Shown piece by piece: positions 5,059 through 33,430 of a stretch of DNA of 39,892 nucleotides. The position numbers and the translations under genes are program-made. Within the stretch, counting starts at the first letter, position 1; every line of letters starts with the position of its first letter. Origin of the DNA: a virus. The stretch lies in the UHGV virus genome UHGV-0038300; one strand, written 5' to 3'. The notes under the pieces were generated by a model. It did no database searches and was not told where the DNA came from. It saw only the letters and a program-made list of their open reading frames with translations.

Positions 5059-5075
5059 ATTACCTTTCGGGTAAT
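5059..5075. promoter_or_regulatory. 17-bp palindromic operator-like site ATTACC-TTTCG-GGTAAT
   Basis: Perfect 6-5-6 inverted repeat belonging to the dispersed site family; upstream of the LexA box and the tail-fibre gene. Confidence 0.6.
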
Positions 5076-5150: not shown

Positions 5151-5408
5151 ATGCAGCAGTATCACTATCCACTGGAAGACGGATTTACCGAAAGGATTCA
5201 CACGCCGGGAGGCGTCAGATCACTGGTGGAGGGATCGCACTTGATGAAATTACTCCGGGATCTCGATAAGGATGGATTTAATGTCGATGGCCCACTTGCC
5301 GAACTGACTGCACTGATTAACTACGTCACCAGCTCACAGATGTCTATGCGGGATCTGCAAACACATCTCGACTATTGTGCCGAACAATTACGAAAACAAA
5401 CCCGGTAA
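5151..5408 (+). CDS. Small (85 aa) antirepressor-like protein, homologous to the C-terminal domain of the Bro-N antirepressor; candidate SOS-inducible antirepressor
   Basis: RBS ggagaag then ATG 5151. Aligns with the C-terminus of the 6555-7247 product (PL..G....IH.P.GV..L.E.S.LM.LL..L..DG..V.G..AELT......V......RD.QTH..Y). The upstream part of the listed ORF is occupied by regulatory sites. Confidence 0.7.
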   Translation: MQQYHYPLEDGFTERIHTPGGVRSLVEGSHLMKLLRDLDKDGFNVDGPLAELTALINYVTSSQMSMRDLQTHLDYCAEQLRKQTR

Positions 5409-5430
5409 ATTTAAAGGCCGCAAGAGCGGC

Positions 5431-6159
5431 CTATCGTTTCGCTTTGTGCTCATCCCAGCACGTTTTGCACCATGCCATTAAGCCGTCCGCATTTTGATTA
5501 TTAGGGTAAAAGCTGGTTCGTTTTCTGCGGACATTACAAATTGGGCACCACTTCATATGGCGTGTATTCTTTGGGCCATCGAGACACCTTGCACACCACT
5601 TAGTCAATCCATCTGGATTTTTTGACGATTTCCTGAATTTTTCATATGGAAGGTTTATTCTGCATCGCAAGCACTGCTTGCTACCACTTGAAACTCTGTT
5701 AGCTGATTCTTCTTTTGGCGGCGATACAGAAGGTATTCTTGCTGGCTCTGATACTGCCTGAGGTGCTTTTTTAGATGACTGAGACGATATGTCACCACCA
5801 GGGAATCTTCCATGATATGCCGGACGCGTTGACACTCCAGGTGGAAGCTCAGCTGTAAACGGCTTTGGCTGAATCAGTTGCCTCTCTTTTGCTAACTCCT
5901 GCTGTTTATAATATGTCTGGATTACCGCACTATCATAAGCAGGAGGTGCGGAAATATTAGGCGCATTACCTCCAGTTTTTTGAAACTGAGTAGAGGTGTG
6001 TTCTATCACCTGTGTACGATTAATCGTTATCTCCCCATCTTCGGTCTTTATCGTTTTGTTATGATTAACGACCGTACGATCAGAGATCTTAGTCTTGTTC
6101 TGGTTGATAACGTAAATAATCACCGCAACCACACCAACAACTATCCAGAAAACTTCCAT
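5431..6159 (-). CDS. Membrane-anchored protein with a C-terminal duplicated Cys-rich (zinc-ribbon-like) module; function unknown
   Basis: N-terminal TM helix (MEVFWIVVGVVAVIIYVI), Pro/Ser-rich linker, then CLRC...WCARC and CPIC...WCKTC repeats; RBS gaggaaaag before the ATG; operator-like site just upstream. Confidence 0.6.
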   Translation of the reverse strand: MEVFWIVVGVVAVIIYVINQNKTKISDRTVVNHNKTIKTEDGEITINRTQVIEHTSTQFQKTGGNAPNISAPPAYDSAVIQTYYKQQELAKERQLIQPKPFTAELPPGVSTRPAYHGRFPGGDISSQSSKKAPQAVSEPARIPSVSPPKEESANRVSSGSKQCLRCRINLPYEKFRKSSKNPDGLTKWCARCLDGPKNTRHMKWCPICNVRRKRTSFYPNNQNADGLMAWCKTCWDEHKAKR

Positions 6160-6178
6160 TTCTTTTCCTCACAATAAC

Positions 6179-6195
6179 ATTACCTTAAAGGTAAT
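6179..6195. promoter_or_regulatory. 17-bp palindromic operator-like site ATTACC-TTAAA-GGTAAT
   Basis: Perfect inverted repeat about 20 bp upstream of the 5431-6159 gene start (minus strand). Confidence 0.6.
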
Positions 6196-6271
6196 ATCTT
6201 GCTTTCAGGTGATCAAGCGTTAAACCAAATCAACCAAATACGGTTGATTTTAATATTTCTTCACGTTTATC

Positions 6272-6288
6272 ATTACCTTTGAGGTAAA
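6272..6288. promoter_or_regulatory. 17-bp operator-like site ATTACC-TTTGA-GGTAAA overlapping a putative rightward promoter
   Basis: Overlaps a -10-like TATCAT (6268-6273) set 18 bp after a -35-like TTGATT (6244-6249). Confidence 0.5.
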
Positions 6289-6554
6289 TTTACATCGCAC
6301 TCCTCTTGTGCCATAGTAATCGGGCACTGGCAAAATCCAGTGCCGGGATTGGTCTCCCGGATTACTACAGAGGCACATATGCCGCATAAGCGGTTTTTTT
6401 ATGTGTAAAGCGCACCTATTCTATGGTGGGCTGTGTGGGGGCACCGAAAGGTGCGCCGGGTTCCTTTGTAGCCGGTAAGACCAACTCTGCACAGTTCACC
6501 ACCATCTGATTGGTCTCAGCGGTGGTGATTAACCTAACTACAAAGGTGATCGCC

Positions 6555-7247
6555 ATGAATACCAAACCTTCCATCTTTTCCTTTGAGTCATCCTGCCAGA
6601 TCCGTATGTTCATGATTGACGGAGAACCTTGGTTTGTCACCAAAGATGTGTGCAATGCTTTGAATATTGATGTTACACAAGCGAGAAAACTTGATAAAAA
6701 AGGCTGGAACAAAAAGGGGCTGTATTCAATACAGACCCCTGGTGGAATACAAGAACTATCCATCGTTTCAGAATCAGGTCTCTACATCCTTATTCTGCGT
6801 TGCAAAGAGGCAATGACAGGGGGAACGAGAGCATTCAGATTTCTTGAATGGGTTACAGGTGAGGTTCTTCCTCAGATCCGCCGCACAGGAAGTTACATTA
6901 AAAACTCGCTCCCGCAGGAAGAACGCATAAAGATGGTTGCCGACCAGGTAGCCAACGCCACGGCGTCAGCAGTAATGCAGGCGATGAAGATAGAGAACAA
7001 AACCTACAGTGCCCCGCTGAAGCCCGGCTACCGCAGCCTGATTCATTCGCCGTCTGGTGTTCTCGGCCTGACGGAGAACTCACTGCTGATGAATTTGCTG
7101 AACCAGTTACAGGAAGACGGGCATGATGTATCGGGCGCGGCAGCGGAGCTGACCACCATGTTCTGCTACATCGTCGGTGTGAGCAAATGCCTGCGTGACA
7201 TCCAGACTCACGCGGAGTACATCAACGACAAAGCAGGGTTCTTCTGA
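6555..7247 (+). CDS. Antirepressor with an N-terminal Bro-N domain
   Basis: N-terminus ...FSFESSCQIRMFMIDGEPWFVTKDVCNALNI... is typical of Bro-N/Ant proteins; RBS aaggtga before ATG 6555 (the listed ORF begins at an upstream TTG). Confidence 0.8.
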   Translation: MNTKPSIFSFESSCQIRMFMIDGEPWFVTKDVCNALNIDVTQARKLDKKGWNKKGLYSIQTPGGIQELSIVSESGLYILILRCKEAMTGGTRAFRFLEWVTGEVLPQIRRTGSYIKNSLPQEERIKMVADQVANATASAVMQAMKIENKTYSAPLKPGYRSLIHSPSGVLGLTENSLLMNLLNQLQEDGHDVSGAAAELTTMFCYIVGVSKCLRDIQTHAEYINDKAGFF

Positions 7248-7311: not shown

Positions 7312-7328
7312 ATTACCTTAAAGGTAAA
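7312..7328. promoter_or_regulatory. 17-bp operator-like site ATTACC-TTAAA-GGTAAA
   Basis: Inverted repeat about 25 bp upstream of the 7354 start codon. Confidence 0.55.
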
Positions 7329-7353
7329 CCATGTGTTTACATGAGGAGGAGAT

Positions 7354-7563
7354 ATGGGATTTTGGTTCGCTCGTACAAAAACGAGGGATAATGCACCCAG
7401 CCCTCAGGCAAAAAATGCAGAAGTTCCGGCGTCAGCGCAGGTTAACAAGCGTGGTGGAGTATATATCTCATCACAGCAAATTTCTGAGCTTCCTGAGGTT
7501 AAGGAGATGCGTCGTCTCGCTGCTGCAATTGTTAAACAGGATCTTGCCACTGTAAGGAAGTAG
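7354..7563 (+). CDS. Small hypothetical protein (69 aa), first gene of a two-gene accessory module
   Basis: Strong RBS gaggaggag 6 nt before the ATG; its stop TAG overlaps the GTG start of the next ORF by one nucleotide. Confidence 0.55.
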   Translation: MGFWFARTKTRDNAPSPQAKNAEVPASAQVNKRGGVYISSQQISELPEVKEMRRLAAAIVKQDLATVRK

Positions 7564-8429
7564 TGTTGCTAGCTCTTCTAATTATCCCAATCCTGGTTAG
7601 CGGTTATATTATGATAACCGCTAACCAGTATCATTATTTCCGTTTATACCGACACGAAGGCCAGCTTCTTTATATGAAAGTAGCGGCACTAGGTACATAT
7701 TGCCTTGTTGCATCAGTAATAATTGCAGCCGCTATAAAATATAAATGGCCTGATTTTCACCTAGTTCACGATATGGTGGAAACTTTTAATGTAACATCAA
7801 AACCAGAAACAGATAGAATTTACATGTGGCTGCTTCTTCTCTCAGCCACATCCATTTGCTTCTCTTTGTGTTATGTGTCTGTTGTGTGGGTGAAAGATTT
7901 TCTTCTTGGTTGTTTTTATAAACGTGATATTTACGAGCAAAAAACAGAGGCAATGAAGGCCAGAGTACTGCGAAAAACTTACTCGCAAGGTTCTTTAGAC
8001 TTACTATTGCTTGATGCTATTGAATCGGATCCTAAACGACCAATGCTGATTACTTTATCATCAAACAAAGTGTATGTTGGAATAATAAATGGTTCTGGTG
8101 AACCAACGGAAAATCAGGGTCCGCATCAGCACATATCTTTTGTTCCTTTAATGTCAGGATACAGGAACAAAGAAAACTTATCTGTCACATTCACTAATGC
8201 TTATCCAGGAGAAATACAGGTCAAGCGGACTGCAGCAATAAGAGGAATTAGCAGAAAGAAAGTGCCAGGACTTGAGATCATGGTGTCTATTGACGAAATA
8301 AGTTATATATCATGGTTTGATTTTGAAGTATATAAAGCAACAAATAACAAAGTAGAATCCAGGGGGCACGTTATTCGTGTTACCAAAAATGGAAGAAATA
8401 TATATCAAAGAAATAGCAAAAAAGAATAG
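7563..8429 (+). CDS. Hypothetical membrane protein (3 N-terminal TM helices plus a ~170-aa soluble C-terminal domain); candidate exclusion/abortive-infection-type accessory protein
   Basis: Long ORF with hydrophobic helices at about aa 2-18, 35-58 and 85-110; markedly AT-rich compared with flanking phage genes; exact start (GTG 7563 or a nearby codon) uncertain. Confidence 0.6.
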   Translation: MLLALLIIPILVSGYIMITANQYHYFRLYRHEGQLLYMKVAALGTYCLVASVIIAAAIKYKWPDFHLVHDMVETFNVTSKPETDRIYMWLLLLSATSICFSLCYVSVVWVKDFLLGCFYKRDIYEQKTEAMKARVLRKTYSQGSLDLLLLDAIESDPKRPMLITLSSNKVYVGIINGSGEPTENQGPHQHISFVPLMSGYRNKENLSVTFTNAYPGEIQVKRTAAIRGISRKKVPGLEIMVSIDEISYISWFDFEVYKATNNKVESRGHVIRVTKNGRNIYQRNSKKE

Positions 8430-24854: not shown

Positions 24855-24943
24855 ATCAATGACTCCGTACGCAATTAAATTATTACCAATTTAACCACAT
24901 ATGATTTATTTATCGTAGACAGTTGACATTTAACGCACGAATT

Positions 24944-24960
24944 ATTACCTTTCAGGTAAG
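24944..24960. promoter_or_regulatory. 17-bp operator-like site ATTACC-TTTCA-GGTAAG
   Basis: Member of the dispersed site family; 16 bp downstream of a TTGACA hexamer (24923-24928) in the non-coding region upstream of the tRNA. Confidence 0.5.
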
Positions 24961-25281
24961 CAAAGAGTTCATTCCGGTTATTAACCTGACTGGCTTGTCG
25001 TTAAATTGAACAGGTGGGGTGAGCTTTTATTTTGAGCAGTACGGTGTATGGCACATGCGCCGATAGCGGTCTGGATACGTTTAAGGGGCACCCTCCCTTG
25101 CTCGGGCAAACGAACCAGGTAGCCGGAATGTGCAAGTCGAGCGGTTTTATTCCGCGCACGGGGATTCACCATCCCGGCGATTCGGTGTGACACCTCGGAA
25201 GAGACGAGGGTACAACGATGAGAGCATTTATGGAGCCGCGACAAAGTGTGGCGCCTTAACAGGCTAAGTGCTCTCAGCGTT

Positions 25282-25358
25282 GTGGCATTAGCTCAGTCGG
25301 ACAGAGCAACCGCCTTCTAAGCGGTTGGTCGCAGGTTCGAATCCTGCATGCCACGCCA
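25282..25358 (+). tRNA. tRNA-Arg (anticodon UCU, reads AGA), 77 nt with encoded CCA
   Basis: Hand-folded cloverleaf: acceptor gtggcat/atgccac, D-stem gctc/gagc, anticodon stem accgc/gcggt with loop cTTCTAa (U33, A37), T-arm gcagg-TTCGAAT-cctgc, discriminator G, CCA. Confidence 0.85.
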
Positions 25359-32726: not shown

Positions 32727-32791
32727 TTCACCCATAAGGTAACAAAAATCAAGGATAGTTACCTATGAGGTGCATTTACCTGTTGGGTAAT
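32727..32791. promoter_or_regulatory. Right operator region: three 17-bp sites at 32727-32743, 32758-32774 and 32775-32791 between the divergent cro-like and repressor genes
   Basis: TTcACC-CATAA-GGTAAC, GTTACC-TATGA-GGTgcA and TTTACC-TGTTG-GGTAAT; tripartite arrangement as in lambdoid OR. Confidence 0.65.
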
Positions 32792-32845: not shown

Positions 32846-33430
32846 ATGAAAAGTATCCAGGACGTCCGCAGGCAAAATCTCAACGACTTGATCGACCGTG
32901 AATTCAATGGTGTTCAGACGCGGATGGCAGAAAAACTTGGAACTCAGGCAAATCTGGTAAACCGCTGGGCTCTTGGCAAGAAGGTTATCGGCGACCAGGT
33001 TGCGCGAAAAATTGAAGCTGCCGCCAATAAACCACGTAACTGGCTTGATATCGATCGCTCGCTTTCTCAGGAAGGTTTTCAGCCTGTCGGCCCAAGCGAC
33101 ATTGGTCAGCTGGCGGCTCACAACCTGGAACGCTGGATGAGCGAAAGCCGCGACCTTTCAACACAGGGAAAACTTCACCGCGCATCCGGCGTCGCCCAGG
33201 TGACAATCAGCCGCCTGTTAAACAATGAGGTCAGCGTTTCCATTTCCACCCTGGAGAATGTTGCATCCGCATTCGGGCGTCACGGCTATGAATTACTGAT
33301 TCACCCGCACGACCCTGCGACCATCAACTATGACCGCTCGCGCTACGCATTGTTACCCGAAACCGAGAAAGCAAAGATCGAAAGTTACATTGAATTTGTC
33401 ATCAACCAGAACGAAAAAAACAAACAATAA
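32846..33430 (+). CDS. CI-like prophage repressor with an N-terminal XRE-type HTH, a second HTH-like segment and no LexA/S24 peptidase domain
   Basis: HTH ...VQTRMAEKLGTQANLVNRWALGKK...; no Ser-Lys peptidase signature seen; divergent from the cro-like gene and followed by a strong terminator. Confidence 0.65.
   Translation: MKSIQDVRRQNLNDLIDREFNGVQTRMAEKLGTQANLVNRWALGKKVIGDQVARKIEAAANKPRNWLDIDRSLSQEGFQPVGPSDIGQLAAHNLERWMSESRDLSTQGKLHRASGVAQVTISRLLNNEVSVSISTLENVASAFGRHGYELLIHPHDPATINYDRSRYALLPETEKAKIESYIEFVINQNEKNKQ

Follow-up and report, generated by a model that had tools for sequence, protein, structure and literature searches.

An accessory phage protein with a predicted membrane anchor and tandem zinc-type modules, encoded beside immunity genes

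The early protein p16.7 of phage phi29 is a membrane-anchored DNA-binding protein with an N-terminal transmembrane (TM) segment, and phage-exclusion genes are often placed behind the repressor gene cI, the position occupied by rexAB in lambda. In PdpSau and AbiP, two proteins that bring about abortive infection, a basic cytoplasmic domain that binds DNA is joined to an N-terminal membrane helix (PMC10127798). The nuclease Hpy99I contains two β4-α2 repeats, each with a structural zinc held by two CxxC motifs; its first, non-catalytic repeat reads the DNA major groove, and its second bears the active site Asp148/His149/Asn165 (PMC2699513). Here we describe a protein that we compare with these systems, encoded by an open reading frame (ORF) at 5431..6159 on the minus strand of the virus genome UHGV-0038300. 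The window that we analysed is the whole of this stretch, 39,892 nucleotides (nt) long, and is the genome of an epsilon15/phiV10-like (Uetakevirus-type) temperate podophage of E. coli. The coding sequence, taken from the ORF list, starts with ATG and specifies 242 residues plus a stop codon (5431-5433); a Shine-Dalgarno element, GAGG, can be read from the sequence at 6167..6170 on the same strand, 7 nt ahead of the ATG.

A sequence-only reading of this DNA had suggested that the ORF encodes a membrane-anchored, putatively nucleic-acid-binding zinc module. Conservation, structure prediction and fold comparison support this suggestion, and our computations further support a tight genomic and regulatory coupling of the gene to the immunity switch.

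Tandem zinc-type repeats on a membrane tether

The C-terminal part of the protein contains two CxxC-x22-CxxC repeats (residues 161-195 and 203-237) that align without gaps at 35% identity (E=2e-7), which bears out the two Cys-rich repeats of about 35 residues discerned earlier. The first zinc module comprises residues 158-196 (C163, C166, C189 and C192; 5572..5688, minus strand) and is predicted with a local distance difference test score (pLDDT) above 90. It is followed by a conserved inter-module linker of the form NT[KR]H.KW and the second module, together residues 197-242 (C205, C208, C231 and C234, with RRKR at 211-214; 5434..5571, minus strand). None of the eight Cys varies in 29 close homologues, one fragment excepted, from Escherichia, Superficieibacter, Enterobacter, Citrobacter, Salmonella, Serratia, Providencia, Pectobacterium and Buttiauxella, or in 40 diverse family members with 21-57% identity. 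The sequence-only reading had been made to depend on the conservation of this pattern, which is thus kept down to 21% identity.

As the fold search with the full-length protein was swamped by its disordered linker, a separate model and search were made for the last 90 residues, a step already proposed with the sequence-only reading. The C-terminal 86-90 residues are predicted with a pLDDT of 87-95, and each repeat consists of a hairpin with the first CxxC and a second hairpin whose final strand enters a helix with the second CxxC. Each repeat is accordingly predicted to be a treble-clef or β4-α unit of the His-Me-finger (Stc1-like) kind and, by its Cys pattern, to bind zinc. In a Foldseek search of the PDB, Stc1 (2luy) ranks first (probability 0.87) and Hpy99I second, while the matches in BFVD, all with probability 1.0, are phage and giant-virus HNH or β-β-α-Me endonucleases and 'Stc1 domain' proteins. 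The earlier description 'zinc-ribbon-like' therefore holds as to the kind of module, a zinc module, but not as to a classical zinc ribbon, the treble-clef or β4-α unit fitting the predicted fold and its matches better. At the level of sequence profiles the domain shows a weak match to the N-terminus of PacI (E=0.08), module 2 matches the N-terminal parts of EndoVII and HNH families in PHROG, and the Pfam Stc1 model (PF12898) matches the ORF protein in two stretches at 21.0 bits (E=4.9e-4), below its gathering threshold of 24.8 bits. This sub-threshold match is all that Pfam gave; its HNH and Endonuclease_7 models do not match the protein, NCBIfam yielded no match, and no Pfam, NCBIfam or PADLOC model spans the whole of it.

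Although the β-β-α fold with two CxxC motifs typical of His-Me fingers is predicted to be present, the catalytic His positions are occupied by K177-S178-S179 (S178 being invariant) and S216-F217-Y218, and no conserved His occurs in either hairpin across the aligned homologues and family members. Likewise, the family alignment shows no conserved metal-ligand Asn, His or Asp in the helix after the second CxxC of either repeat, the residues following C192 and C234 varying between CLDG, CLKG, CMDK, CLRK and CHKK. An active nuclease is ruled out by the lack of both catalytic His and metal ligand in both repeats. The zinc domain is strongly basic, with 20-21 Lys and Arg against 6 Asp and Glu, an isoelectric point of about 10 and a net charge of about +14; across the family the net charge of the domain lies between +7 and +22, the median being +14. 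The tandem modules probably bind nucleic acid, and without catalytic His or metal ligand in either copy they are expected to bind a polyanion, most likely DNA, and not to cut it.

At the opposite end of the protein, residues 3-20 (6100..6153, minus strand) form a hydrophobic helix in the AlphaFold2 (AF2) model with a pLDDT of 86-92, preceded by a flank of only one or two residues and directly followed by NQNKTKISDR. This agrees with the single N-terminal TM helix and ensuing positive residues recognised at first reading, and family members keep the anchor, together with an acidic residue at position 2 and a C-terminal flank rich in K/R: among 47 family members the 15 residues C-terminal of the helix contain a mean of 3.3 K/R, and the N-terminal flank has a median length of 0. 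The topology is predicted to be N-out/C-in, with the zinc domain in the cytoplasm, on account of the short N-terminal flank with its acidic residue 2, the K/R residues after the helix, the absence of a basic n-region and the presence of Cys4 zinc sites, which belong in the reducing cytoplasm. A cleavable signal peptide followed by a periplasmic domain was rejected, as there is no basic n-region and the K/R-rich flank lies C-terminal of the helix; eight zinc-type Cys would also be out of place in the periplasm.

The anchor leads into a conserved juxtamembrane block not singled out before, residues 21-55 (NQNKT...TIKTEDGEI.I.RTQV; 5995..6099, minus strand), in which N21 and G42 are almost invariant among the 40 diverse members and which AF2 models, with the low confidence of pLDDT 44-50, as a β-hairpin (strands 27-39 and 42-54). 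The long Pro/Ser-rich linker of the sequence-only reading extends over residues 56-157 (5689..5994, minus strand); it contains 14 Pro, 11 Ser and 8 Gln in the 98 residues from 59 to 156 and is predicted to be disordered, with a pLDDT below 50 over most of its length. Its length and sequence vary freely among the homologues while the reading frame is maintained, as is characteristic of a genuine protein whose spacer is flexible.

The protein matches phrog_6762, a family with no assigned function, along its full length (E=8.4e-150; residues 1-242 against profile positions 1-242 of 242). We found 33 homologues in Enterobacterales, and the gene occurs in 129 of 5426 complete E. coli genomes (~2%), always on the chromosome, the copies in E. 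coli prophages being 96-100% identical; a further 79 IMG/VR viral contigs, mostly of 30-44 kb, also carry it. Searching 1.84 billion representative proteins with the domain profile gave 1,737 matches at E<=1e-3. Among the best 150 of these, 47 show the whole architecture (N-terminal TM helix, exactly four CxxC, 150-283 residues), 14 are fragments of such tethered proteins and the other 89 are soluble and have up to 28 CxxC motifs (median eight). The 78 soluble relatives that were scanned include 42 with Pfam Stc1 (best E=3.4e-18), 17 with DUF6510, 8 with Endonuclease_7, 8 with HNH and a few with helicase domains, the module here being fused to nucleic-acid enzymes. The tethered architecture is kept from E. 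coli to Acinetobacter, Marinobacterium, Oceanobacter, Neptunomonas, Pseudoalteromonas, Edwardsiella and metagenomic contigs. Thus, viruses and bacteria commonly use the zinc module as a building block, for the most part in the company of nucleic-acid enzymes. Proteins with two modules on a membrane tether make up a family of their own, whose only names are PHROG 6762 and 'hypothetical protein', the label of its NCBI entries (e.g. WP_080849514.1; in TL-2011b the gene is a misc_feature). The protein had been called unusual, a judgement to be softened, as the module is very common in viral HNH and EndoVII nucleases and the architecture as a whole defines a sizeable family. Some large soluble relatives, such as P0046 (2046 residues), carry 10 or more copies of the module together with HEAT repeats and a ResIII/DEAD helicase, and some other soluble module proteins have up to 28 CxxC motifs.

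Operator, cassette and immunity-gene neighbourhood

A pattern search of the window with the 17-base-pair (bp) palindrome ATTACCTTnnAGGTAAT recovers 13 sites (26 strand matches against 0.74 expected), at 5059, 6179, 6272, 7312, 24944, 27760, 30382, 30444, 32390, 32775, 33487, 33549 and 39668. The reading of these palindromes as operators is our own. The site upstream of the ORF, ATTACCTTAAAGGTAAT at 6179..6195, is the only copy without a mismatch. An inferred sigma-70 promoter for the ORF lies at 6188..6216 on the minus strand, with a -35 element TTGATC (6211-6216), a 17-nt spacer and a -10 element TACCTT (6188-6193) in the left arm of the operator. Since this TACCTT lies 17 nt past TTGATC and is itself the left arm, the operator would cover both the -10 element and the start site. 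The operator-like site suspected earlier at the ORF promoter is a perfect copy of the palindrome over the putative -10 element and one of a strongly over-represented set. The promoter was assigned by hand from conserved geometry, its score of 7/12 to consensus being under the threshold of the scan. The same geometry, TTGAnC-17-TACCTT, recurs in four sequence-diverged groups of homologues, including some in other genomic slots, with an equivalent operator upstream of the homologues in L004/L061, L062-L067, L069 and L005/L078; it is also found at the window's own site 24944, there with the consensus TTGACA. As this geometry is shared by homologues with diverged surroundings, there is good evidence at the sequence level that the cassette carries a repressor-controlled promoter.

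The presumed operator-binding protein is the immunity repressor encoded at 32846..33430 (plus strand), an HTH_3 protein by Pfam and a homologue of phiV10p40 and epsilon15p38, annotated as repressor in phiV10; operators at 32775, 33487 and 33549 flank its gene. Over-expression of the ZX5 homologue, described as sequence-identical to the phiV10 repressor, shut off lytic genes (PMC9782041). Two extra degenerate operator copies are discernible upstream of the repressor gene, at ~32730 and ~32759. A second operator near the ORF, at 6272..6288, is 93 bp from the first, sits in the flank common to phiV10 and abuts the -35 element of the promoter (6289-6317) of the isrK/C4/ant operon. The spacings of the operator pairs, 62, 62 and 93 bp, amount to about 6 and 9 helical turns, a hint of cooperative binding. 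The dispersal of 17-bp operators over many promoter regions resembles the control exerted by C1 of P1.

The gene is missing from phiV10, ZX5, phiv142-3 and many other relatives despite flanks that are 91-97% identical. In phiV10 and many relatives the epsilon15p19-like gene runs straight to the antirepressor operator, the boundary with the window lying near 6240-6265, and in EC.W1-9 the slot holds two unrelated genes (168 and 139 residues; L003 3433-4348) whose products match nothing in Pfam or PADLOC. Phage TL-2011b is 94.6% identical to the window over 1.6 kb around the ORF, and the flanks match phiV10, ZX5, phiv142-3 and others as well. The cassette extends over ~5409-6262 and contains a GC-rich hairpin, the ORF with its ribosome-binding site, the operator, the -35 element and, at its right edge, a hairpin (6227..6250) that the terminator scan finds terminator-like on the plus strand. 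Elsewhere the gene occupies other slots, after ant-hicB-hicA in Superficieibacter and after Bro-N and KilA-N/ANT genes in Serratia, and both prophage copies retain their own operator and promoter. The ORF is thus a self-contained accessory cassette of promoter, operator, gene and terminator. Such patchy presence among phages with conserved flanks rules out a virion component, so that the gene is not a known structural component, as it might have proved to be. The slot, flanked by the p19-like gene and the antirepressor leader, is a site of variable cargo; the label of defence hotspot is not supportable, given that the alternative cargo of EC.W1-9 belongs to no recognisable family.

Comparison of the family's surroundings shows a repressor or antirepressor as the immediate neighbour in about 14 of 24 independent contexts. 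A cI-like helix-turn-helix (HTH) repressor, mostly of HTH+S24 type, adjoins the gene in seven distinct contexts, and in four lineages (L093/L135, L098, L129 and L130) the gene follows it on the same strand at 15-21 nt with no intervening terminator, implying co-transcription with the repressor. A terminator-like hairpin separates the two in L091, and in L094 and L097 they stand tail to tail. Seven more contexts, the window included, have a neighbour of antirepressor type (Bro-N, KilA-N, ANT, Rha or ORF6N), and an Arc-like repressor adjoins the gene in L090. No conserved partner gene emerged, the downstream genes differing in every lineage compared, and the neighbours tested had no Pfam or PADLOC match apart from an SNase+Excalibur nuclease in one lineage. 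The latter, seen in the Marinobacterium-type loci, follows the homologue and overlaps its stop codon (L093 6654-7307; L135 3654-4307), and matches the PADLOC model PDLC01096 (SNc+LTD); an Excalibur-domain ORF also lies ahead of the homologue in L141 (2777-2989).

Within the window the ORF is convergent with an epsilon15p19-like gene for an 85-residue protein (5151..5408, plus strand; annotated in phiV10). The earlier identification of this neighbour as a small antirepressor is borne out by a 43% identity (BLASTP, E=1e-16) of its product to the C-terminal part of the Bro-N antirepressor. It is a stand-alone paralogue of the C-terminal 75 residues of the antirepressor, with its own operator ahead at 5059. 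The hairpin between the two convergent genes (GGCCGC-AAGA-GCGGCC, 5415..5432, from the terminator scan) is kept in TL-2011b and EC.W1-9; it is terminator-like on the minus strand and probably bidirectional. Divergently from the ORF runs the antirepressor operon, whose leader contains the isrK small RNA (6324-6400; Rfam 74.7 bits) and the C4 antisense RNA (6419-6506; Rfam 78.6 bits), both on the plus strand and above their gathering scores, followed by the Bro-N antirepressor gene (6555..7247, plus strand; Pfam Bro-N E=2e-13), its start taken from alignment with annotated relatives. The isrK/C4 tandem in a Bro-N leader joins a P1/P7 immI-like element with a Gifsy-1 isrK-like element, and the mapped 5' end of isrK agrees with the extended -10 promoter at 6289-6317.

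Further features concern the operators and accessory genes of the phage and its relatives. At 24900-25358 the TTGACA-17-TACCTT promoter that operator 24944 overlaps is oriented towards a tRNA-Arg(tct) gene (25282-25358), so that this phage tRNA appears to be under repressor control. An operator-fronted accessory unit at 7312-8429 encodes a 69-residue product and a 288-residue protein with N-terminal hydrophobic segments, neither with a Pfam or PADLOC match; other genes take this position in TL-2011b and in strain AST20, including one for a DUF4760 protein in the latter. In L061-L067, a perfect 14-bp palindrome, TGTGACATGTCACA, lies directly upstream of the -35 element of the homologue's promoter, ~60-75 nt before the start codon. 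It may be the site of a second regulator; the loci that bear it are in Enterobacter, Citrobacter, Salmonella and Superficieibacter prophages, and it is absent from the window.

Candidate functions

The sequence-only reading had offered exclusion of incoming DNA or regulation as candidate roles, and the genomic context suits either. By analogy with AbiP and PdpSau, we tentatively propose a role in exclusion or abortive infection, in which the protein would trap DNA, or a protein bound to DNA, at the membrane; we hold this to be possible, though short of probable. The single N-terminal helix would anchor the protein in the inner membrane in N-out/C-in orientation, and a flexible leash of ~100 residues would carry the strongly basic cytoplasmic domain of two Cys4-zinc β4-α repeats. 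DNA or a DNA-bound protein would be captured on the cytoplasmic face of the membrane, and the capture would interfere with the incoming or replicating genome of a competing phage. In the window phage the immunity repressor would switch the gene through the operator over the -10 element, with the protein acting after derepression or at infection, whereas in other lineages it would be co-transcribed with the repressor and act in the lysogen. The proposal draws on the precedent of AbiP and PdpSau and on the frequent placement of exclusion genes behind cI; with superinfection-exclusion proteins of the SieA, Imm and HK97 gp15 kind the protein would also share an inner-membrane location, its single TM anchor being predicted. 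Architecture, conservation, fold class, missing catalytic residues, accessory distribution, operator geometry and neighbourhood are computed results; the binding of zinc and DNA, the topology, the repression of the gene and its biological role are inferred.

Several points weigh against this proposal. The perfect operator over the -10 element predicts that the gene is silent in a lysogen of the window phage, and most prophage exclusion genes are expressed in the lysogen; moreover, the distant relatives in cI operons predict expression in the lysogen, the opposite timing. The promoter is weak by consensus and the automatic scan called none for the ORF. PADLOC-DB v2 returned no family for the protein at E<=1, and it has no effector domain. 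About 10 of the 24 contexts lack a recognisable adjoining regulator, and a neighbourhood of immunity genes is equally expected for an accessory factor of the switch itself. Finally, the tandem finger of Stc1, as far as is known the only member of PF12898 whose function has been studied, binds a protein (Ago1) and not DNA.

A broader form of the exclusion proposal, which we put forward as a rather doubtful speculation, would make the whole family a widespread and hitherto unrecognised means of immunity or exclusion that temperate phages of Gammaproteobacteria carry as a single gene, a 'dead nuclease on a leash'. In such a device an inactivated tandem His-Me-finger domain of the DNA-reading kind, tethered beneath the inner membrane, is proposed to intercept DNA entering or replicating at the membrane, and to be wired into the immunity circuit either by co-transcription with cI or by control from the operator of cI.

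The protein-binding precedent of Stc1 leads to an alternative that we judge unlikely, namely that the LIM/Stc1-like fingers bind protein and hold a regulator at the membrane, tuning induction or establishment of lysogeny as an accessory of the lysis-lysogeny switch. Candidates for this regulator are the antirepressor or its small C-terminal paralogue, the repressor, and a host factor such as RecA or a protease. The fold match to Stc1 is in keeping with this, as are the repressor and antirepressor neighbours in about 14 of the 24 contexts, the position of the window gene between the small Ant paralogue and the isrK/C4/ant operon under a common operator system, and the two operators set about 9 helical turns apart. 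Yet near-identical phages with the same repressor and ant do without the gene, and the adjoining partner changes by lineage (cI, Bro-N, KilA-N, Rha or ORF6N) while the zinc domain is highly conserved; its extreme positive charge and nuclease-linked relatives, too, favour nucleic acid as the ligand.

Control by the operator could instead mean that the protein is made on derepression as an early lytic host-takeover or anti-defence factor, which would bind and neutralise a membrane-associated defence component of the host or a prophage, or host DNA, with tethering of the nucleoid or a block of division as proposed examples. Tight repressor control of the kind seen at the other early promoters of the phage and the accessory distribution in a variable region would suit such a role, and module 2 matches a PHROG labelled 'Lar-like restriction alleviation' (E=2.6e-9). 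The Pfam family Lar_restr_allev, however, does not match the ORF protein even at E<=1, co-transcription with cI in at least four lineages is unexpected for an anti-defence gene, and we know of no anti-defence protein with such an architecture, so that we consider this explanation quite improbable. Least credible, at the level of a long shot, is an organiser of the phage's own DNA that recruits replicating or injected DNA to the membrane in the manner of phi29 p16.7, since the common design of N-terminal anchor, spacer and predicted C-terminal DNA-binding domain with early expression is offset by the optional nature of the gene among close relatives, its lack of linkage to replication genes ~25 kb away in the window, its place in the cI operon elsewhere and the absence of any sequence or fold relation to p16.7.

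Comparison with known systems

Our search of the literature found no paper tying the Stc1 domain or PF12898 to phage and no published function for the PHROG 6762 family. As far as we could find, neither the combination nor the family nor its connection to the immunity circuit has been described, whereas the module and the idea of a membrane-anchored nucleic-acid binder were already known. Should the protein act on DNA at the membrane, it would join the small set of membrane-anchored nucleic-acid-binding phage-resistance proteins and bring to it a new kind of structure, zinc repeats of nuclease descent in place of OB folds. A family present in ~2% of complete E. coli genomes and in Gammaproteobacterial prophages would gain a function, and the case would show that the very common viral Stc1-like or HNH-associated zinc module has been reused without the nuclease. 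Whatever its function, the gene illustrates cleanly how a mobile accessory gene can move together with its own repressor-controlled promoter, by which the cassette would plug into the immunity network of the recipient epsilon15-like phage, and it is a conserved, well-defined and readily testable candidate for a phage-exclusion or switch accessory factor.

The likeness to Hpy99I (3fc3), PacI (3m7k) and the T4 endonuclease VII family lies in the tandem Cys4-zinc β4-α repeats predicted here; this unit builds both the DNA-reading and the catalytic half of nucleases such as Hpy99I and PacI. Unlike these enzymes, the ORF protein lacks the catalytic His, with Ser-Ser or Lys in its stead, as well as the Asn/His/Asp metal ligand and the SH3-like barrel, and it is predicted to be anchored in the membrane. 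Stc1 of S. pombe, a LIM-like tandem zinc finger, is the first-ranked PDB match to its predicted fold but is itself a soluble eukaryotic adaptor. With lambda rexA and rexB the similarity is one of gene position, distant family members lying 15-21 nt behind a cI-like repressor on the same strand; there is no relation in sequence or structure, and the copy in the window is placed elsewhere, with a repressor-controlled promoter. The phi29 protein p16.7 differs both in its fold and in being a core replication helper, as opposed to the product of an optional gene. AbiP of Lactococcus and PdpSau of S. aureus prophages have a membrane helix and a basic nucleic-acid-binding domain, of which the helix and the basic domain are predicted here as well, and they too are single genes borne by prophages or mobile elements; they differ in their Gram-positive hosts and in using an OB-fold-like binding domain where the present family has zinc modules, and no homology connects them to it.

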